Positions 53,709 through 64,000 of a stretch of DNA of 64,000 bases are shown piece by piece. Numbering within the stretch: position 1 is the stretch's first letter; each line of letters starts with the position of its first letter. The position numbers were made by a program, and so were the translations under genes. This DNA comes from an uncultured Bacteroidota bacterium (GTDB lineage Bacteria; Bacteroidota; Bacteroidia; Bacteroidales; WCHB1-69), in contig OW818690.1 of NCBI GenBank assembly GCA_942493315.1, positions 2,503,275-2,567,274 on the forward strand. Direction: 5' to 3'. The notes under the pieces are model-generated. The model made no database searches, was not told where the DNA came from, and worked only from the letters and a program-made list of their open reading frames with translations.

Positions 53709-54257
53709 TTATAGTTTGTCTAATTTGTCAAGAAGTGAGATGGTAAAGGAGTCCATTCGGGAAAAAGCAAACCATTTTTTGCCTAAATCTTTTAATGATG
53801 CTCCAAAATGGTACAATTCATGATCATCAATGATTAAAAAGCGATCGTGAGCACCATTAAATTCAACTATTTTTATTTCGGGATATTGTCTGTTGTGTTT
53901 TTTAAGATCGATTCTAAGTTGTTTCGAAACAGCAGAAAGCATAGCAACGCCTTGTTCGGTAAATACCCATGGCAAGTATTTTCTATGTTGTCCTCTCCCT
54001 TTTTGATCTTCTAAGGTGCCAATTTGGAACTTTAAAGATTCCCATTCGGATTCATCTAATTGAAATGCAAATGTACTTGGAAATCTATCGGGATTTCGAT
54101 GAACAGCTCTATTGATGTATTTAGTCTCCGTTTGATATAATTTTGCTAATTCACTATCAAGCATGACCTGCATTTCTCTTATTGTAAATATTTTATTTTC
54201 AAGATTGTTTATAAGTGGTATGTTTTGCTGAGATGCAAAATAGATTTCGTCTTTCAT
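53709..54257 (-). CDS. ORF6N-domain (KilA-N-like) DNA-binding protein
   Basis: IREMQVMLDSELAKLYQTETKYINRAVHRNPDRFP ... GRGQHRKYLPWVFTEQGVAMLS, and C-terminal HDRFLIIDD..LYHFGASLKDLGKKWFAFSRM. Confidence 0.8.
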   Translation of the reverse strand: MKDEIYFASQQNIPLINNLENKIFTIREMQVMLDSELAKLYQTETKYINRAVHRNPDRFPSTFAFQLDESEWESLKFQIGTLEDQKGRGQHRKYLPWVFTEQGVAMLSAVSKQLRIDLKKHNRQYPEIKIVEFNGAHDRFLIIDDHELYHFGASLKDLGKKWFAFSRMDSFTISLLDKLDKL

Positions 54258-54468: not shown

Positions 54469-54637
54469 TGCGGTCTTTGTAGCAGATGATTGGTGTTGTG
54501 ATGATTTAGAGGGGCGGAGCCCTGAGATCTTAAATAATGAAAAATGAAGAATTAAAAATGAAAAATGTCAGGGCTAACGCCCCTTTTGTGGTTGTGGGGA
54601 TCGCATTTTCTACAAAGATCGCAGGGCTACGCCCCTG
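54469..54637. repeat. GC-rich REP-like inverted-repeat cluster
   Basis: AGGGGCGGAGCCCTGA (54510-54525) is inverted relative to TCAGGGCTAACGCCCCT (54568-54584) and CAGGGCTACGCCCCTG (54622-54637). GCGGTCTTTGTAG is inverted relative to CTACAAAGATCGC. Confidence 0.75.
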
Positions 54638-54665
54638 ATAAAAATCGAAACGCCGTTGCCATTGC

Positions 54666-54887
54666 CTATTTGAAACTTCCCGATGGTCATTTGAAACTTC
54701 CCGATGGTCATTTGAAACTTCCCGATGGCTATTTGAAACTTCCCGATGGCTATTTGAAACTTCCCGATGGCTATTTGAAACTTCCCGATGGCTATTTGAA
54801 ACTTCCCGACGACTATTTGAAACTTCCCGATGGTTATTTGAAACTTCCCGATGGTTATTTGAAACTTCCCGATGGTTATTTGAAAAC
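54666..54887. repeat. 21-bp tandem repeat, about 10.5 copies (consensus CTATTTGAAACTTCCCGATGG)
   Basis: Read directly. Variation is confined to the first two bases of each unit plus one GACGA variant. Confidence 0.95.
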
Positions 54888-54913
54888 TACGGTTCTCTAT
54901 ATGAAAACCGTAG
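54882..54913 (-). terminator. Rho-independent terminator of gene 54931..55674
   Basis: CTACGGTT (54887-54894) pairs with AACCGTAG (54906-54913). A T-run follows on the minus strand, 18 nt after the stop. Confidence 0.65.
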
Positions 54914-54930
54914 TATCAGATTTCTTTTAG

Positions 54931-55674
54931 TTATAATCTATTTTCAAAACCGAGTCCTGAAACTTGTTTAAACTCGGTACTTGCTGTGCCGAAGAGGGAT
55001 TTGATGTACGATTTGGTGTCGGAGGCGCGGTCGATGAGGCCGGTGATGGGGTGGTAGAGGATTTCGTTGCGGAGACCACGTGCTTTTTCGAGTTTTAGAT
55101 AGGCAGCGATCACGTTGGTGTTGGCTGCTTTGAGAACGGCAAGTAGTGCTTGTAAGGTACCGATTTTGAGTTCATCTTCGTTGGGGGTGTATTCGGGAAT
55201 AGAGGAGAGTTGGATGAGGAGGCGGTCGAAGTTTTCGATGCGGGAATCGTAGCTCATTTGGGCTGTGGAGATCTGCGTTTTAGGAGTACCGGCTTCGGTT
55301 AATGCTTGTTGTTCTTTTTCGGTGAGTTTGGCGGATGCTCTTCTCCCTTGCAGTTTCCGGATGATCGATTGGACGCTCTCATCGTACTTCATGTTGGAAT
55401 CGGACGCTTTGAGGGCGTTGTTGATACGGGTGATCAGCTTGTTGAGGGGTTCAAAAGCGATTTCCCGATCATCAACCGCTTTGGAATAAGCAGTTTGGGC
55501 AGCATAATGGGCATTAAACGACTCCTTGGTACTCACCAGAAGTGCTTGCAAAGAGGCCAGTTTGATGCTCTCTTTCGATGGGTTGTACTTCTCCCCAAAA
55601 AGGGTGATTGCAGAGATTAAACTCTCTAAGTTGGTCATATTTTTAGCATGACCGGATTCAGATGTTTTTGACAT
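54931..55674 (-). CDS. Hypothetical protein, compositionally atypical (GC-richer than surroundings)
   Basis: Clean 247-aa ORF, predicted helical, no signal peptide. Visibly higher G+C than neighbouring genes. Confidence 0.6.
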   Translation of the reverse strand: MSKTSESGHAKNMTNLESLISAITLFGEKYNPSKESIKLASLQALLVSTKESFNAHYAAQTAYSKAVDDREIAFEPLNKLITRINNALKASDSNMKYDESVQSIIRKLQGRRASAKLTEKEQQALTEAGTPKTQISTAQMSYDSRIENFDRLLIQLSSIPEYTPNEDELKIGTLQALLAVLKAANTNVIAAYLKLEKARGLRNEILYHPITGLIDRASDTKSYIKSLFGTASTEFKQVSGLGFENRL

Positions 55675-56791: not shown

Positions 56792-57733
56792 TCAATGCCT
56801 AAATTTGGTTGACCGTTTGTTTACTTGTTTTTGGCATATTATCATTGGTTGACTTGTCCTTGTTGGGGAGCTCTGAGCTTGGTCTTGGGCTAGCCCAAGA
56901 CCAAGCTCAGAGCTGGGTTCCAAAATTTTTGAAGATTTTTTTTCTTCGGGATTTTGGTTTTGCAAATATATACTTTTTTCGAATGAAATTGGTGACTTTC
57001 TTTGTAGCTTACAATGAGGCTTTTCGTAGTTATAAAGGTACACTGATCGGTCAACTTCTTTCACTAATGTCTCGTAATTAGTAATCGTTCTGTAGCTTAA
57101 ATAGTTGTTTTTAATCACTCCATTAATTCTCTCTGCTTTACCATTCTCCCAGGGGGCAACACACATACTATGGAGAAAATCTTCAGTCACATCTAAAAAC
57201 TCTTTTGCACCATATTGTCTACCGCCATCTGAATGAAAAATTAAGCCGTTTAGATCTTCCCCTTTACGGAACCTTAATGCGCTATTTAATGATGCAATTA
57301 CTGTCTGCTCTGTCGTTAAACGCTTTGATACAGAATATCCTACAATAACTCTTGAGTAAGCATCAATTATAAAGGTAATATAGTAAAAATGACCATTAAT
57401 TTTGTAATATGTGGTGTCTGATTGCCAAACTTGATTAATCCTGGTTATCTCTAAGTTTTTAATTAAATTATCAAAACGGATTACTCCACTACTATCTGTA
57501 GTATGAATAAATCTCTTTTTCCTCTTTATCATTAATCCTGCAAGCTTACACAATTCTTCAAATTGATCTCTCCCAACATAACAAGGTCGCTTTTTATAAT
57601 AAATATCCCTTACACCCATAGTGGGATGATCCATCCTGACTTCGAAAACAATTTCCTTCACTAAATGAAGAATGTCCTTTTTTTTATTGTCTCTTTGAAG
57701 GATTTTATATACTGCTTGTTTGCTGATATTCAT
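56792..57733 (-). CDS. IS3-family transposase OrfB (rve integrase core)
   Basis: WQSDTTY, HSDGGRQY and NGKAERING D-D-E context. Confidence 0.9.
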   Translation of the reverse strand: MNISKQAVYKILQRDNKKKDILHLVKEIVFEVRMDHPTMGVRDIYYKKRPCYVGRDQFEELCKLAGLMIKRKKRFIHTTDSSGVIRFDNLIKNLEITRINQVWQSDTTYYKINGHFYYITFIIDAYSRVIVGYSVSKRLTTEQTVIASLNSALRFRKGEDLNGLIFHSDGGRQYGAKEFLDVTEDFLHSMCVAPWENGKAERINGVIKNNYLSYRTITNYETLVKEVDRSVYLYNYEKPHCKLQRKSPISFEKSIYLQNQNPEEKKSSKILEPSSELGLGLAQDQAQSSPTRTSQPMIICQKQVNKRSTKFRH

Positions 57734-57750
57734 AGCTTTATAAAGTGCAT

Positions 57751-58167
57751 TTAGTGAGTGATGGTATTCATCTTGATGTTCTTGATAATGTCGGAAGGTG
57801 TCGTTTCGAACTTTTTTTTTATATCAACACCATAATGATCCTCTGCGATTTCAATCATTTTGTCTTTAAATTCTAGAAGAATTTGCTTTTCTCCAATAAT
57901 CATTTTGAGATGTGCATTCTCTTTTTTTAAAGCCATTATTTGTTTAGTATCACTCTCAGTTTCAATAACTAATCTTTCTTTTTTTGTTTTCATATTGCCA
58001 TATTTATTTAACCATTGATAAATTGTACCTCTCACGGTATCATATTGTCTGCAAAGGTCGGCAATTTTTGTTTGTCCAGATTCAATCTCTTGGACTTTTT
58101 TTCTCTTGAAGCTTTCACTAAAGTGTCTTCTTTTTCTTTCTTCTAATGTTAAACTAATTTCTTTCAT
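57751..58167 (-). CDS. IS3-family transposase OrfA (HTH)
   Basis: N-terminal HTH (RRHFSESFKRKKVQEIESGQTKIADLCRQYDTVRGTIYQWLNK) plus a leucine-zipper-like region. Confidence 0.9.
   Translation of the reverse strand: MKEISLTLEERKRRHFSESFKRKKVQEIESGQTKIADLCRQYDTVRGTIYQWLNKYGNMKTKKERLVIETESDTKQIMALKKENAHLKMIIGEKQILLEFKDKMIEIAEDHYGVDIKKKFETTPSDIIKNIKMNTITH
57812..57820 (-). other. Probable -1 programmed frameshift site (A9 run) joining OrfA and OrfB
   Basis: On the minus strand, ATATAAAAAAAAAGTT lies within OrfA. The OrfB frame is open from this point (KKKVRNDTFRHYQEHQDEYHHSLNALYKAMNISKQ). Confidence 0.7.
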
Positions 58168-58286
58168 AGGTTCACTTTTTTATTTAATTTGTTATTTAAA
58201 AGTGGTCAACCTATTTCAGGCATTGACACACTATTCATTATTCACTATTCATTATTCACTATTCTCTAATCACTAATCACTATTCA

Positions 58287-58559
58287 CTATTCACTATTCA
58301 CTAATCTCTGGTACGCCTTCAGGTATTTGTTGAGTCTTTTCCGGTCTTGATCGGTGATTTGGGGGAGGCGGGTGATAACCATGTTGTTGCGGAGATCGTT
58401 GAGTTTGACGGTGATGGCGGTTTTGTTGGTGAGGATCCGGTCGATGAAGTAGTCGTAATTTTCCTGTTCTGATTCTTTGGTGTCCAGTCTCAGCACGTTA
58501 ATGAACTCCTCGGAGAACTCCTTTTATTGCAGCATATCGAAGGTACAAGGGGTATCCTC
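58287..58559 (-). pseudogene. Truncated, stop-interrupted paralogue of the adjacent HD hydrolase (GC-richer copy)
   Basis: Reads EDTPCTFDMLQ*KEFSEEFINVLRLDTKESEQENYDYFIDRILTNKTAITVKLNDL, which aligns with aa ~55-147 of ORF 58658..59101. In-frame TAA at 58524-58526. The N-terminal half is missing, and the C-terminal codons come from the heptamer tract. Confidence 0.75.
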
Positions 58560-58657: not shown

Positions 58658-59101
58658 TCAATATAGTATTATTTTAACTTCATTTATTAGTCGATTGTAA
58701 GCATGAATATAAATATTAAGACCTACTAAATCTTCTTCATTGATTTGATTATTCAATGTTAAATCTAACTTATCACGAAGTTCATTTAATTTTACATAAA
58801 TAGCGGTTTTGTTTTGAATAATTTTATCAATATAACTATTGTAATTTTCAAGTTCTGATTCTTTTGCTAATAATTTTAAAACTTTGATGACTTCCTCAGA
58901 AAATCCTTCTTTTTCAAGCATTTCAAAAGTCCAATCTGAGTTATTCACTAAATCGTGTAAGACTCCGCAAATCCTTTCAGTCTCATTTAATCCTCTATCT
59001 TTCATTCTGATCAAATGTCTATAATAGGGTTCACCATTTTTTCCTATTTGATCTTTATGTGCTTCAAAGGCAATCTCAATGGCTGTTTGTAGTGAAGACA
59101 T
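58658..59101 (-). CDS. Small HD-domain phosphohydrolase (RelA/SpoT-hydrolase-like, HD_4-type)
   Basis: AFEAHKDQIGKNGEPYYRHL ... GVLHDLV pattern. The usual ED after HD is replaced (LHDLVNNSDWT). Confidence 0.7.
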   Translation of the reverse strand: MSSLQTAIEIAFEAHKDQIGKNGEPYYRHLIRMKDRGLNETERICGVLHDLVNNSDWTFEMLEKEGFSEEVIKVLKLLAKESELENYNSYIDKIIQNKTAIYVKLNELRDKLDLTLNNQINEEDLVGLNIYIHAYNRLINEVKIILY

Positions 59102-59246: not shown

Positions 59247-61136
59247 TTAAACTTCAAAATGTTTTTCAAGCCGTTCTAATAAACCAGACAATAATTCATC
59301 ATATGATTTAAACCTCAATTGAGATAAACTACGAAGATTAAAACCAATGTATTTGTTAATATCAATCCTATCCCTATTATGTTCAGAATCTTCCTTATAA
59401 AGCAAAATAATATTAGGATATAAACCATTAGATTGAGCAAATCCCATCGCATACCCAATTTCATGATAAACATTAATATTAGCACTGCTTAAGTCTGCAA
59501 TAATAAGACTACAACTCTTTATTGCATCTAATATACCATCTTGTATTGAAAAGGCACTTGGAGTTACTGCTCTATCTATTCGTATTGGTGTTGCATGTAA
59601 ATGGACTCCAGAATATTTTTTATTAAACTGCTCTATAGTTCTTACGACCTTTTCATATATGAGTTCACTTTGTGAATCCCCAAATTGCATAGAAATAAAA
59701 ATTTCGTTCTTTTTTGAATCATATATTTGTTCAAACATTCTGATAAAATTTTCAGAACCATCTTTAGATAAATCGTCTGGTTCGTTTATTTTATTAATAC
59801 CATTTTTTATTACCCAATTAGCGAATGTGTTTAATTGTGTTTTATCTAATAATGAATAATATACTAATGCAACAAGTAAAGAAATATTTCCAAATGAATC
59901 ATTTGCAAATAATTCATAAATATTTCTTAAGGAATGAATTGCTTTTACGATAGAATCAACATCTTCACAATGAAATAGATATTTCTCAAGAGATTCGATT
60001 TTATTATTAAAACTATCAATCAATTTACTGTCATAGTCTTGTTGCCTGACGTTTGAATTCAATTCTTCTGTTAAGTTTCTCAGCTCCTTATTTAGGTTCT
60101 TGTATTTTAAAGTTTGTTCGCTTACTTCTTGATTTTCATCTTTAAGTAGTTCTATTTCCTTTTTTTTGTTCTCAATATTTACTTGTAAATTCTGAATATT
60201 TATTTTAAATTGTTTAAATTCAATTTCAATTTGCTTTTTTTGTTTTTCTGCTTTTTCAAGTTTATTTTGTATCGTTACTTTTCGGGATATTAACAACTGG
60301 ACTATTCTTAAACAAGCTGTTCTATAATAAGTCTCATTAACATTCTGCTTCGCCGTGAGCCAATAAATACCATTAAATGCACCAGTTTTTGTAATATCAA
60401 TAATTTTTAATGCCAGAGGATACTCTGAACCTAATTTTTCTTTATCATCAAAAACATCTAAATCAGATATGATTTTCAAACTCGCCTCTTGACGAAGAGG
60501 TAATTGTTTGAAATTTATATCATGAAAAATTTTTGCTTCAAAATTTTCTGCGTTATCCCGCTCTGAAATAACAACCGTAAAAGGAATAATCTTTCCTTCA
60601 ATTTCTGCCCTATATACTTTTGCTTGATGTTGCAACCATGCATCTTTTTTTTCTTCATCACTTTCATTTAGAACATCGACTGGAATATCAAGAAACTGAT
60701 ACCACCAATTGATATCACTACTAAACGGTTCTAATCTGTGATTGCCATCTACACGAGTTAACTTTTCATCTTCATTAGGATTTCTTAGTTCTAAATATGC
60801 ATGTCTTGCTCTGTCTCTTCCTGTGGGCAAGTATTCACTTAATACTCTTAGTCCTTTAACAAACTGACTATCTGTATTACTAACATCGGTATCTGTACCA
60901 ATACTTGTAATTAAACCTGCGTAATCACTTGTACGACATGCTAGTGTCACTTCAGGAAAATAGGATTTTAGATCAGTTAAGTATTTGACAATTTCAACTT
61001 TATGTTGCTCAACAGAATCCCGTTGATACGATTCTGGTTTTTTTGAAATCTTAGCAATTTCACCAATTGGTGCAAATCCTCTTAAAACAATATAGTTTCC
61101 AAATGCTTTGTAAATTATTCCTTCAAGTTTTGCCAT
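59247..61136 (-). CDS. Fusion protein: DGQHR/DndB-like (ParB-fold) N-domain + coiled coil + nucleoside 2-deoxyribosyltransferase-like/TIR-like C-domain
   Basis: SYQRD ... RVDGNHRLE (aa 128-136) ... FHDINFKQLPL. K/E/N/Q heptad-like region at aa ~283-390. C-terminal IFISMQF ... LIIADLSSANINVYHEIGYAMG ... NIILLY. Starts 1 nt after the hsdS stop. Confidence 0.6.
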   Translation of the reverse strand: MAKLEGIIYKAFGNYIVLRGFAPIGEIAKISKKPESYQRDSVEQHKVEIVKYLTDLKSYFPEVTLACRTSDYAGLITSIGTDTDVSNTDSQFVKGLRVLSEYLPTGRDRARHAYLELRNPNEDEKLTRVDGNHRLEPFSSDINWWYQFLDIPVDVLNESDEEKKDAWLQHQAKVYRAEIEGKIIPFTVVISERDNAENFEAKIFHDINFKQLPLRQEASLKIISDLDVFDDKEKLGSEYPLALKIIDITKTGAFNGIYWLTAKQNVNETYYRTACLRIVQLLISRKVTIQNKLEKAEKQKKQIEIEFKQFKINIQNLQVNIENKKKEIELLKDENQEVSEQTLKYKNLNKELRNLTEELNSNVRQQDYDSKLIDSFNNKIESLEKYLFHCEDVDSIVKAIHSLRNIYELFANDSFGNISLLVALVYYSLLDKTQLNTFANWVIKNGINKINEPDDLSKDGSENFIRMFEQIYDSKKNEIFISMQFGDSQSELIYEKVVRTIEQFNKKYSGVHLHATPIRIDRAVTPSAFSIQDGILDAIKSCSLIIADLSSANINVYHEIGYAMGFAQSNGLYPNIILLYKEDSEHNRDRIDINKYIGFNLRSLSQLRFKSYDELLSGLLERLEKHFEV

Positions 61137-61137
61137 A

Positions 61138-62529
61138 TTATTTTCCGTTTAATATTATTCGTTCTATCTCTTTTTTCGCATTTTCAAGAATTTCATGACC
61201 TTCTAATTGAAGTTTCTTAGCTTGCTCTCTTAATGATGCAATACGGCTTGAAATTTCATATTGTATCTCGAATGGAGGTAATATGAGTTTCATTGTTGAT
61301 ATTTCTTCCAAGTTTATATTTGCTCTTGCAACAGGTCTCTTTAATCTATCCAAGTTAAGTTGACCTATACTTGATTTAATTAATTCTTTAATATATTGTT
61401 TGTCTATTCCTTTGTTAAGTCGAACTAATGCAATAGCCTGATTAATATTTGCTTCTCTATCATATATGTAAATACCAACTTGCCCAATTGTAGCCCCAAC
61501 AATAGCAATCATAATATCTCCCTTTATTAGTTGAGAAGATTTCATTTTAGTATTATGTATGTGAAGTTTTAAATAAAGTAAATTATCAAAATCAATGTCG
61601 CCATCCACATTGATATTACCACTGCGTACAAATGGGACTCCATTCTCGCAATCAGTATATGAGTCTCCACCTGATAGTGGTGTTATTCCACTGGTTATTT
61701 TCTGTGAAATATCTTTTAATGAGACTAATTCATATTTTGTTTGAAATAGAGATTCAAATGCAAGTTCAAAATACTCCTGATGATAATATGGATCAATTCT
61801 TTGATTTACTAAGTTGTTAATTGATATTACATTAGAAAAGTTATCTGTTTTTTTAGTGGGCAGATTTATTCCCAACATATTTAACATGTAACAGTCAATT
61901 GATGCTATAATGTTTTTTGCCTGAGCTTCTTTCTTTCGCTTTGTTGAGTAAGCGGCATTATATAAATTGACAACGTGAGTTTGTTCATCATGGGATAATA
62001 ATGGTATTAATGTTTGCTTTACAGCTTCCTGGGATAAACTGCCCATAATAGCACCAATTTTATTTTTGTCAAATTGCAACTGTCCATATCTTGAGTTTAA
62101 TACAATTTCTAGATAATCTGATGAAACAAGTTCTTTCTTAATATCAAGATAAAAGACTTCAGAACTTATCAAGTAATCATTATCACTTTTCAATGATAAA
62201 GCATTACCAAAAGTACCTTTCCTAGTTAATAACAAGTTGCCACTCTTTAATTTTATATTCTTAGAAATTGTACTTGTATCAAAATCAACGTATTGTATCT
62301 TAGAAAAATCAAATTCACCCTTTTTGACATTTGCTACTTTTATGTAAAGTATTTTCCCTATATCGGAATACTCTCTAAAATCATAACCATTTACAATTGA
62401 ATTAATTATTTCGCCTAGTTTCACAACCTTAATATGAGAACTAACATTTGAAGAAATTTGTTCTTTGTAGTAATAAGGATCAAAACGAGAACCCAAAACT
62501 TCTGAAATGCTTACATATATAGTATTCAT
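61138..62529 (-). CDS. hsdS: Type I restriction-modification specificity subunit
   Basis: Two target-recognition halves separated by conserved helical spacers (…QEAVKQTLIPLLSHDEQTHVV… and C-terminal …LPPFEIQYEISSRIASLREQAKKLQ…). Overlaps the hsdM stop by 4 nt. Confidence 0.85.
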   Translation of the reverse strand: MNTIYVSISEVLGSRFDPYYYKEQISSNVSSHIKVVKLGEIINSIVNGYDFREYSDIGKILYIKVANVKKGEFDFSKIQYVDFDTSTISKNIKLKSGNLLLTRKGTFGNALSLKSDNDYLISSEVFYLDIKKELVSSDYLEIVLNSRYGQLQFDKNKIGAIMGSLSQEAVKQTLIPLLSHDEQTHVVNLYNAAYSTKRKKEAQAKNIIASIDCYMLNMLGINLPTKKTDNFSNVISINNLVNQRIDPYYHQEYFELAFESLFQTKYELVSLKDISQKITSGITPLSGGDSYTDCENGVPFVRSGNINVDGDIDFDNLLYLKLHIHNTKMKSSQLIKGDIMIAIVGATIGQVGIYIYDREANINQAIALVRLNKGIDKQYIKELIKSSIGQLNLDRLKRPVARANINLEEISTMKLILPPFEIQYEISSRIASLREQAKKLQLEGHEILENAKKEIERIILNGK

Positions 62530-64000
62530 ACCAAATTTTCTTTTAAAATAAAGTCGTTTATTCGTTTAGATGCTTCAAATAATTCACTTTCACCTTTTGG
62601 TTTCCCAACTGCATCGTATCCTATATTTTCAATTTCTAACATTAATACGTTGTAGTTATCAATAATTTTAAATATTCTTTCCTTGTAAAGTTCTATAATT
62701 TTTTCCGATTTCATTTCCTTATGAAGTTCCTTCATTTCTCGAACCCTTGTTTTTGTATCATTCAATATTTCTTCAAATTTCTTCACTTGATTCTCTGGAT
62801 ATTTCTTAAGAAAAAGAACAGAAGACTTGACACCTGCTCGGACATGTGAAAATGTATATTGGGGTAATGAAGCTACAGCAACAATTCTAAATTTGTCAAT
62901 CAACCAATCACGTACATATTGATTTGTTGAATTTGTTATAATACCATCGGGAACGACAATAGCTAAAAAGCCTCCTTCACAAAGATATTTGTAACATCGT
63001 TCAAGAAAAAGAATTTCAGTACTTTGAGCTACTCTCCATTTGTTCTTGTTATCGTTGTCAGCAATTCTTTCCTTTAATTCAGTATATCCAATATTTCTTT
63101 CAAAAAGCTCATAATTTTTAAAATAAGCCACTTCATCAGCTTTAATAGAAGAGCCAAAAGGTGGGTTTGTCATTATCAGATCAAAAGTACCATCTTGAAA
63201 GTTTAAGTTCCGATTTTCTTGTTCAATAGTCTTATTGAGTTTTAATCCATCATTGGTAATGACATTAGTATGACCATCATCATGAATAATCATATTCATT
63301 TTGGCTACTCTAGATATTTGCTCATTTATTTCAATCCCAAAGAGGTTTTCTTTAGCAAAATCATGCCAGTAATTATACCATTTAGTACCACCATCAGGAA
63401 AAAGTTTATCAGCTTCTTCCCTTACTTTCTTTAATGCATGAAGTAAAAAGCCACCACTGCCACATGAAGTGTCAAGAACTTTGAATCTTTTTTCAATAGG
63501 TATTGCATCAGTAATAAATGTAGTGATAGGATCTGGGGTGAAAAACTGACCAAAATCACCTCTGAAAAAGTCGCCCATAAAATTTTGGAATGCAGCTCCT
63601 TTTGCATCCAGATTTGTTTTTGATAAATTTATATCTTGCAAGTATTGCACTACAACATATATTTTATGTTTGTCGAGTTTGATATCATCTTTAAACACTT
63701 CTGGATCTTTCTTTCTCCCTTCTTCATATAGCCTTCTTACACGGTTTTCTAATTCTGTTTTTGCCTTTGTGTTTTGAATATCATTTTTATCTTCTTCATA
63801 ATTTATAATCTGGAATTCGTAAGGTTCTCCCTTGGATTTTGGATTATACTCTTCCCACTTTTCATCCCATATTTTACAGAAAATAAGTTTATCTAACTCA
63901 TCGAATGCTGTAGTAGGAGCTAATGCACCACCACCCCATAATGCATCGTGTGCAGATTTAAACTTTTGAATTAATTCATTCTGAAGTACTACTTGAGGTT
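62526..64000 (-). CDS. hsdM: Type I restriction-modification DNA methyltransferase subunit (5' end outside window)
   Basis: My own translation shows the frame stays open upstream of the listed start to the window edge (…HDALWGGGALAPTTAFDELDKLIFCKIWDEK…). Motifs GQFFTP, LDTSCGSGGFL and MTNPPFG. Confidence 0.9.
   Translation of the reverse strand, partial: PQVVLQNELIQKFKSAHDALWGGGALAPTTAFDELDKLIFCKIWDEKWEEYNPKSKGEPYEFQIINYEEDKNDIQNTKAKTELENRVRRLYEEGRKKDPEVFKDDIKLDKHKIYVVVQYLQDINLSKTNLDAKGAAFQNFMGDFFRGDFGQFFTPDPITTFITDAIPIEKRFKVLDTSCGSGGFLLHALKKVREEADKLFPDGGTKWYNYWHDFAKENLFGIEINEQISRVAKMNMIIHDDGHTNVITNDGLKLNKTIEQENRNLNFQDGTFDLIMTNPPFGSSIKADEVAYFKNYELFERNIGYTELKERIADNDNKNKWRVAQSTEILFLERCYKYLCEGGFLAIVVPDGIITNSTNQYVRDWLIDKFRIVAVASLPQYTFSHVRAGVKSSVLFLKKYPENQVKKFEEILNDTKTRVREMKELHKEMKSEKIIELYKERIFKIIDNYNVLMLEIENIGYDAVGKPKGESELFEASKRINDFILKENLV

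Follow-up and report, generated by a model that had tools for sequence, protein, structure and literature searches.

What kind of protein is encoded directly behind the methylase and specificity genes that lie at the end of a 64,000-nt stretch of DNA from an uncultured Bacteroidota bacterium (contig OW818690.1, positions 2,503,275 to 2,567,274; hereafter the window), and what might it contribute to them? The gene in question is an open reading frame (ORF) for 629 amino acids (aa), here called gene X, and its product is called protein X; the methylase-like gene upstream is designated RM and the specificity gene S. Protein X combines a ParB-like head with a domain that resembles nucleoside 2-deoxyribosyltransferases (NDTs). 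It is a real partner of the RM-S pair and occurs essentially only with this one RM-S clade, which is also found without X. The pair itself is predicted to be of the BsaXI/BcgI-like type IIB restriction-modification class, and X is probably an add-on to anti-phage defence.

According to the ORF list of the window, the minus strand carries RM, S and X as one tightly packed three-gene unit. The genes, and the predicted domains of X, are located as follows.

62526-64000, minus strand: 3' part of the RM gene, 491 codons (Pfam N6_Mtase, PADLOC PDLC03030, family profile against RM.BsaXI)
61138-62529, minus strand: S gene, specificity subunit with two target-recognition domains (Pfam Methylase_S, PADLOC Specificity_I)
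59247-61136, minus strand: gene X, 629 aa, with a DGQHR/ParB-like head, a coiled-coil hairpin, a helical linker and an NDT-like domain
60327-61136, minus strand: X residues 1-270, predicted DGQHR/DndB-type domain of the ParB/sulfiredoxin (Srx) fold (motifs, profiles, domain model, Foldseek)
59970-60326, minus strand: X residues 271-389, modelled antiparallel two-helix (coiled-coil) hairpin (AlphaFold2, AF2)
59709-59969, minus strand: X residues 390-476, predicted helical linker domain (model and alignment)
59250-59708, minus strand: X residues 477-629, predicted NDT-like (TIR-related) Rossmann-like domain (profiles, Foldseek)

The RM stop codon at 62526 overlaps the S start by 4 nt, and the S stop codon (TAA, 61138-61140) is followed by a single base and then by the ATG of X at 61136. 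An earlier note on this DNA, made from the sequence of the window, had described three packed minus-strand genes with a 4-nt RM/S overlap at these coordinates, and the ORF positions confirm that description. The arrangement is not due to chance because the same three-gene order is present in 83 of 85 loci of other organisms. The RM frame is open up to the window edge, and the listed GTG start at 63698 (390 aa) is not its true start. The open frame, together with a PADLOC match that is confined to model positions 281-666, indicates that the gene is cut by the window and that ~280 N-terminal codons are missing. Downstream of X lie a 145-nt AT-rich gap, a small HD-domain gene, a paralogous fragment and an IS3-family insertion sequence. 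Promoter and terminator scans of the locus yielded the same counts as shuffled sequence.

The methylase and specificity pair and its linkage to X

In the earlier note the pair was read as a type I hsdM-hsdS operon without a downstream hsdR gene, in which X either rode on the pair or replaced the restriction subunit HsdR. The absence was confirmed in that no HsdR-like gene lies downstream of X or elsewhere in the 64-kb window, and no large helicase gene is conserved within ±10 kb across the 85 X loci described below. The window RM product matches the PADLOC model PDLC03030 at positions 281-666 of 670 (E=1e-189) and Pfam N6_Mtase (E=1.5e-35), with the catalytic motif NPPF encoded at 63156-63167. 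The S product matches Pfam Methylase_S in two stretches and PADLOC Specificity_I models with E values down to 3e-42, such that both halves of the protein are covered. Full-length RM homologues are 670-760 aa long, with ~72% identity in Bacteroidales and 40-50% elsewhere, and an HSDR_N_2 domain precedes their N6_Mtase domain. Some relatives have one recognition domain fused to RM, which gives chains of 848-951 aa (L013, L023, L042 and L085 among them). The PD-(D/E)xK nuclease signature 'ADI.V...(V/I)ECK' is kept in 67 of the 68 aligned full-length homologues, including the Bacteroidales proteins that are ~72% identical to the window RM, and residues D89, E105 and K107 show no variation across a diverse subset of the family.

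Comparison of the RM family profile (A4) with sequences of the Protein Data Bank (PDB) aligned profile positions 10-676 with residues 14-761 of RM.BsaXI (8w0p) at E=1e-70, whereas the next-best matches, type I HsdM chains, reached no better than E=4e-26. The family thus fits RM.BsaXI far better than HsdM, and the type I assignment was abandoned. BsaXI, a type IIB enzyme, assembles as (RM)2S; its description places the catalytic residues E73, D90, E105 and K107 in the N-terminal nuclease domain and reports them as conserved across type IIB enzymes (PMC11997821). D89, E105 and K107 of the RM family correspond to D90, E105 and K107 of BsaXI. The putative hsdM is accordingly reinterpreted as what appears to be the 3' part of a BsaXI/BcgI-like type IIB RM fusion gene, which would combine a nuclease with a gamma-class N6-adenine methyltransferase, and the locus as a predicted type IIB system, for which no HsdR is required. 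The nuclease domain of the window protein is predicted from the full-length homologues. The 5' part of the gene that would encode it lies beyond position 64000, which is why no nuclease was seen at first reading. Because the RM family carries its own N-terminal PD-(D/E)xK nuclease, no HsdR is missing and the proposed replacement of HsdR by X was discarded as well. A 'type I M-S pair without HsdR' can therefore be a complete type IIB system.

The RM family aligns with RM.BsaXI over the nuclease, connector and methyltransferase regions, shares the D..ExK and NPPF motifs, and is likewise accompanied by a separate S protein with two target-recognition domains. It differs from BsaXI in length, as chains of ~670-760 aa align only with residues 14-761 of the 916-aa BsaXI chain. 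The alignment ends before the C-terminal 'paddle' residues 811-823, which are required for cleavage by BsaXI; the consulted part of the BsaXI report names no X-like third gene (PMC11997821). Cleavage on both sides of a bipartite site, as by type IIB enzymes, is putative here. The sole RM of the 68 with a degenerate nuclease motif is that of Porphyromonas macacae (L005, 6575-8584), where ANI...VECV stands for ADI...VECK. An intact X adjoins this gene, and restriction may have been lost there while X was kept. Assignment of RM and S to the MADS system was rejected, as the scores were 219 for MAD2 (cut-off 720) and 72 for MAD5 (cut-off 400) and no other MADS genes are present.

The linkage of X to RM and S was assessed in a scan of one genome per species, which identified 222 relatives of X in ~15 phyla. 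Eighty loci were fetched, representing Bacteroidota, Alpha-, Beta- and Gammaproteobacteria, Bacillota, Cyanobacteria, Planctomycetota, Verrucomicrobiota, Thermotogota, Deinococcota, Nitrospinota, Desulfobacterota, Patescibacteria and others, and were combined with metagenomic loci into a set of 85 non-redundant loci. An RM/S cluster lies directly upstream of X on the same strand in 83 of them, so the repeated adjacency to a methylase/specificity pair that was expected of a restriction-linked gene is borne out. The exceptions are contig ends and one locus without RM and S (L026), where X is frameshifted. Apart from RM and S, no gene family is common to more than 16 of the 85 loci. The start of X overlaps the preceding stop codon by 4 nt in 30 of 66 loci, and the distant relatives of ~500 aa likewise lie directly behind an S gene. 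In four metagenomic loci (L149, L150, L152 and L164) the order is RM-X-S, and the genes that come next are GmrSD-like (Orf5/HEC-06) or resemble endonuclease effectors. Pairwise distances of RM and X correlate with r=0.82, a value reached by none of 999 permutations.

The reverse linkage is weaker. X is present in 33 of 58 informative loci that were fetched via RM, that is, in most RM-S loci of the Bacteroidales type and in roughly one in three of the distant loci. X is therefore accessory to RM-S rather than a core component. In RM-S loci that lack X, its place is taken by a gene for JetA (Wadjet), a GmrSD-like protein, PDC-S56 or an endonuclease effector, or the next gene is unrelated.

Bacteroidales loci frequently have a TIR_2 gene that separates S from X, and frequently a RAMA/DUF4357 gene behind X. 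In Bacteroides caccae (L001, 9207-9995 and 11878-15892) and in ~11-13 other Bacteroidales loci, a 262-aa TIR_2 protein is encoded between S and X and the RAMA/DUF4357 gene lies directly after X. The B. caccae locus continues with genes for a 1046-aa SIR2_2 protein, a 375-aa protein and RhuM, and the unit rides on a mobilisable element that bears genes for relaxase, MobC and DUF3987 (plus primase). In one X-less Bacteroidales RM-S locus (L101, 2339-4891) the S ORF is 850 aa long, ~390 aa over the usual length, and by tblastn the extra part is not X-like. A candidate Rosetta-stone fusion of RM and X on the Leisingera thetidis plasmid NZ_CP109788.1 (L171, 5300-7543; WP_264214082.1, 'N-6 DNA methylase') was rejected as an in-frame deletion chimera. 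Its residues 1-368 correspond to RM residues 134-505 and are followed by X from the DGNHR motif on, and the coding sequence is what a deletion left behind of an RM-S-X locus rather than a genuine fusion. A search of the phage collection gave no X homologue. The HD-domain gene 3' of X in the window is not a conserved neighbour of X, as it matches nothing but an unrelated gene of the B. caccae locus, at a distance of ~8 kb.

Domain architecture of protein X

Homologues of X comprise 562 proteins in clusters at 90% identity, and 638 relatives were found among 1.84 billion cluster representatives at 50% identity. The close homologues are 52-64% identical, mostly from Bacteroidales, and all are annotated as 'hypothetical', without a Pfam domain. 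In many distant relatives the long helical insert is missing, and the proteins are 470-560 aa in length. Conservation is high in the N- and C-terminal thirds of the protein, and the middle is variable. The motifs that the earlier note had cited (SYQRD, RVDGNHRLE, FHDINFKQLPL, IFISMQF and LIIADLSSANINVYHEIGYAMG) are all present. Its division of the protein into a DGQHR/DndB-like N-terminus, a coiled coil and an NDT- or TIR-like C-terminus agrees with the profile, alignment and model data given below.

The head carries the motifs Q38-R39 (61020-61025), D130-G-N-H-R134 (60735-60749) and F204xxxN208 (FHDIN, 60513-60527), which are invariant or nearly so (alignments A2 and A3). A QR pair, a DGQHR pentapeptide and FxxxN are the elements that define the DGQHR domain (PMC4619093). 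The window protein scores 18.9 bits against TIGR03187 (cut-off 58.85; E=1e-3) and has no Pfam match. A relative (P0232) exceeds the cut-offs of both TIGR03187 (59.4 bits against 58.85) and Pfam DndB (PF14072; 34.2 bits against 29.1), and among 41 diverse members of the family 8 match DndB (best E=5e-9) and 4 match GmrSD_N. The domain model of the head has a mean predicted local distance difference test score (pLDDT) of 83.3. A Foldseek search of the PDB with the head placed ParB, Noc, pNOB8 ParB-N, PadC, sulfiredoxin, BrxU and SspE at the top, though statistical support was weak (probability 0.80 and E=0.03 at best). The search against viral proteins returned a phage GmrSD-N protein with a probability of 0.99 (E=9e-4). 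The assignment of the N-terminus as a DGQHR/DndB-type ParB/Srx-fold domain is thus supported.

X shares with the DGQHR, DndB and DpdB proteins the QR pair, a D-G-x-H-R pentapeptide and FxxxN. It differs from them in that the pentapeptide reads DGNHR (Q to N), that the gene lies outside dnd and dpd clusters, and that the head is fused to an NDT-like domain, a fusion mentioned in none of the descriptions of those families that were found. GmrSD, BrxU and SspE also consist of a ParB/Srx head with QR and DGxxR motifs and a C-terminal effector, and their Foldseek and Pfam matches to X are weak to moderate. Their effector is an HNH/DUF1524 nuclease, whereas that of X has an NDT-like glycosidase fold; they occur alone or in linkage with BREX or Ssp systems, whereas X depends on an adjoining RM-S pair.

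The full-length AF2 model of X has a pLDDT of 72.8. Residues 271-333 and 338-389 were modelled as two long antiparallel helices with pLDDT of ~87-92, which fits a coiled-coil hairpin. The sequence of residues 271-389 is variable and matches only coiled-coil segments of SMC and Rad50; matches of X to DruC, SMC and Rad50 were rejected as coiled-coil artefacts. This helical insert is specific to the Bacteroidales branch and is deleted in the relatives of 470-560 aa. In the linker that follows (residues 390-476), A423, F438 and W441 are nearly invariant.

Profiles built from X alone or from its close family retrieved only coiled-coil noise from the PDB sequences. The addition of distant relatives removed the coiled coil from the profile and enabled NDT structures to be reached. 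The resulting top matches were the NDTs 6qai and 2a0k (E ~0.015). Residues D548 (59493-59495) and E559 (59460-59462), which are invariant in the X family, align with the Asp and the nucleophile Glu of the 'D...(G/N)xxxExG' motif, in the segment 'IADLS...GTAFEVG' of 2a0k and 6qai. Pfam Nuc_deoxyrib_tr (PF05014) matches 21 of the 41 diverse members (best E=7e-9), and one relative (P0265) exceeds its cut-off with 32.2 bits against 28.8. The window protein has no match to this model at E<=0.1, and three close members match it weakly. A Foldseek search of the PDB with the full-length model returned mostly long-helix proteins, dynein and ABC transporters among them. The model also matches DNPH1 (9s1n; probability 1.0, TM score 0.59 normalised to the target) and, among viral proteins, a phage NDT (probability 1.0, TM score 0.56, root-mean-square deviation 4.6). 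The C-terminal domain itself is modelled with only moderate confidence (pLDDT ~41-84).

TIR profiles match X weakly: the PADLOC TIR effector model gives E=2e-3, TIR_2 matches one member, and Pfam CAP12-PCTIR_TIR matches 6 of 23 close and 5 of 41 diverse members (best E=1e-4). All of these matches are weaker than those to NDTs. An NDT-like C-terminal domain with an intact Asp/Glu pair is supported by these data, and the domain looks catalytically competent because D548 and E559 are invariant and coincide with the Asp and the nucleophile Glu of NDTs. X has its fold and its Asp...Glu catalytic motif in common with the NDTs, DNPH1 and the effector of retron Eco1. The solved NDT and DNPH1 chains are ~135-160 aa long, whereas X is a 629-aa multidomain protein, and in contrast to retron Eco1 no retron reverse transcriptase or multicopy single-stranded DNA is involved.

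The earlier note did not recognise this architecture as a named system, and neither did the searches. Comparison of X with PADLOC-DB 2.0 and NCBIfam release 20 gave weak domain-level matches only and no model of a named or candidate system, and a DGQHR/DndB domain joined to a deoxyribosyltransferase is not described in the open-access papers and preprints that were searched. Restriction-linked accessory effectors, the logic of a ParB-like head joined to an effector, both folds and the type IIB family are known already. The combination of a ParB-like head with an NDT-like domain, partnered with type IIB enzymes, appears to be undescribed. Public annotations of X read 'hypothetical protein' or 'nucleoside 2-deoxyribosyltransferase', and the latter label is misleading in that it implies a metabolic enzyme.

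Candidate functions of X

X is tentatively regarded, by analogy, as a second-line effector of the PrrC/Ronin kind that may be coupled to RM-S and may hydrolyse NAD(P)+ or nucleotides. From the genes, domains, motifs and one-sided linkage described above we infer complex formation, a trigger, a substrate and abortive infection as follows. X would be tied to the (RM)2S complex, or to DNA engaged by that complex, and would be silent as long as restriction works. Upon blocking or overwhelming of restriction, the DGQHR head would change state as a guard switched by nucleoside triphosphate (NTP). The NDT-like domain would then cleave the N-glycosidic bond in NAD(P)+ or in a (deoxy)nucleotide, and the infection would be aborted.

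A guard-type N-glycosidase is favoured by the combination of three precedents. The heads related to that of X, those of DndB, DpdB, GmrSD/BrxU and SspE, bind DNA and bind or hydrolyse NTP, and in GmrSD/BrxU and SspE the ParB-like heads with QR and DGxxR motifs sense DNA in an NTP-dependent manner. RonA and PrrC invariably accompany methylase and specificity genes; the M-S complex keeps them in check until anti-restriction proteins attack it (bioRxiv 10.1101/2023.04.06.535777). The NDT-like N-glycosidase effector of retron Eco1 hydrolyses NAD(P)+ and is active against phage (PMC12673091, PMC7736814). PrrC/EcoprrI and Ronin (HsdMS plus RonA) each include an accessory toxic effector that occurs only beside M and S, and X has the same one-sided dependence. 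Firing upon attack of the restriction complex is proposed or shown for those systems and would apply to X by analogy. Their partners are type I enzymes, whereas that of X is a predicted type IIB RM-S pair; their effectors are an anticodon nuclease and a 61-aa membrane peptide, whereas X is an NDT-like enzyme with a ParB-like head; and the RM-S-X system, unlike Ronin, retains a restriction nuclease.

Several observations weigh against X as a guard that hydrolyses NAD(P)+ or nucleotides. The solved NDT and DNPH1 enzymes use deoxynucleosides or deoxynucleoside monophosphates rather than NAD+, and a search of the PDB sequences with the X profile gave no match to the retron Eco1 effector. The matches of X to solved structures are weak (E 0.02-0.03), though mutually consistent, and a DNA-binding ParB-like head fits a DNA-directed enzyme as well as a sensor. 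The region 3' of this RM-S clade hosts JetA, GmrSD-like, PDC-S56, Mrr, AbiH, TIR_2, Fic and RhuM genes, so part of the linkage of X could be positional, in a hot spot for defence genes. The correlation of RM and X distances could in part reflect shared host phylogeny.

The main alternative is that X acts on DNA: it would be delivered by the sequence-specific RM-S complex or cooperate with it, and its NDT-like domain would break or exchange the bond between base and deoxyribose. The outcome would be restriction by base excision, as with R.PabI, or modification by base exchange, as with DpdB and DpdA; on balance this is unlikely, although several lines of evidence point to it. NDTs are 2'-deoxyribosyl transferases with a covalent Glu intermediate, and the aligned E559 and D548 are invariant. 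X matches genuine NDTs and DNPH1, not TIR proteins or the retron effector, its head belongs to the DNA-associated DGQHR/DndB/DpdB family, and the gene is strictly linked, and apparently translationally coupled, to S. Within that family, DpdB is described as a ParB-like ATPase required for the DpdA-mediated insertion of bases into DNA (PMC12839542). However, the RM-S of many close relatives works without X, which makes a core modification or restriction role of X unlikely. The RM nuclease motif is retained, and a second DNA-breaking activity would be superfluous. No genes for the biosynthesis of a replacement base are conserved near X in the 85 loci, and no enzyme of the NDT family is known to act on polymeric DNA. 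More doubtful still is the extended form of this proposal, in which RM-S and X make up a sequence-directed system whose type IIB complex brings a deoxyribosyl-transferase-type enzyme to DNA for base excision or a new kind of base exchange. The accompanying comparison of X to a single-chain analogue of DpdB (DGQHR ATPase) and DpdA (transglycosylase) is to be regarded with the same doubt.

X might instead be a self-contained, single-gene defence that is uncoupled from RM-S, namely a type IV sensor like GmrSD, BrxU or SspE in which the HNH nuclease is swapped for a glycosidase. The parallel of an NTPase head joined to an effector, the many unrelated defence genes that occupy the same position and the TIR_2 gene between S and X in many Bacteroidales loci are consistent with this. 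Nonetheless it is improbable, as a free-standing gene would be expected elsewhere too, yet RM-S lies upstream of X in all but two loci from ~15 phyla. X is sometimes inserted between RM and S, 4-nt overlaps of start and stop codons are common, and X is broken in the sole locus that lacks RM-S. It is very improbable that X regulates or restrains the RM operon or its activity in the manner of DndB, for example by limiting restriction or methylation while the system becomes established. DndB, the founding DGQHR protein, is described as a regulator of the dnd genes (title of PMC4507180; PMC12839542). Such a role would leave the invariant NDT-like catalytic pair unexplained, a small HTH_3 gene already occupies the usual position of a controller at the 5' end of Bacteroidales loci, and X is far bigger than typical controller proteins.

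Should X prove to be an effector that is coupled to a type IIB enzyme, the idea of a 'guarded restriction system', known from PrrC and Ronin, would apply to restriction enzymes of a third class, and the joining of a ParB-like head to an NDT-like glycosidase would be a new pairing of sensor and effector. The family is widespread, with members in 222 species-level genomes of ~15 phyla, and is often met in Bacteroidales of the human gut, where it rides on mobilisable elements.

Other features of the window

The remaining features downstream of X are located as follows.

58658-59101: HD-domain protein, 147 aa, weak match to RelA/SpoT-type HD domains
58287-58496: 69-aa ORF, 52% identical to the C-terminal half of the HD protein
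56792-58167, minus strand: IS3-family element, with orfA (HTH_Tnp_1) at 57751-58167 and orfB (rve integrase core) at 56792-57733

The 69-aa ORF looks like a duplicated HD gene that was truncated beside the insertion sequence, and a 7-bp repeat, CACTATT, is present in 10.7 copies at 58229-58303. The IS3-family element may have cut off whatever formerly followed X here. An ORF6N-domain protein is encoded at 53709-54257 (E=7e-31); together with the RhuM/Bro-N genes near related RM-S-X loci, it suggests a mobile-element or defence-island setting. A 21-bp tandem repeat (10.5 copies, 95% matches) at 54666-54885 lies inside a plus-strand ORF of 'LKLPDGY' heptapeptide repeats (region 54565-55674). Positions 55000-55499 have a GC content of 0.50 and a GC skew of +0.35, whereas the GC content of the surrounding region is ~0.31. 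An overlapping minus-strand ORF of 247 aa (54931-55674) has no Pfam match.

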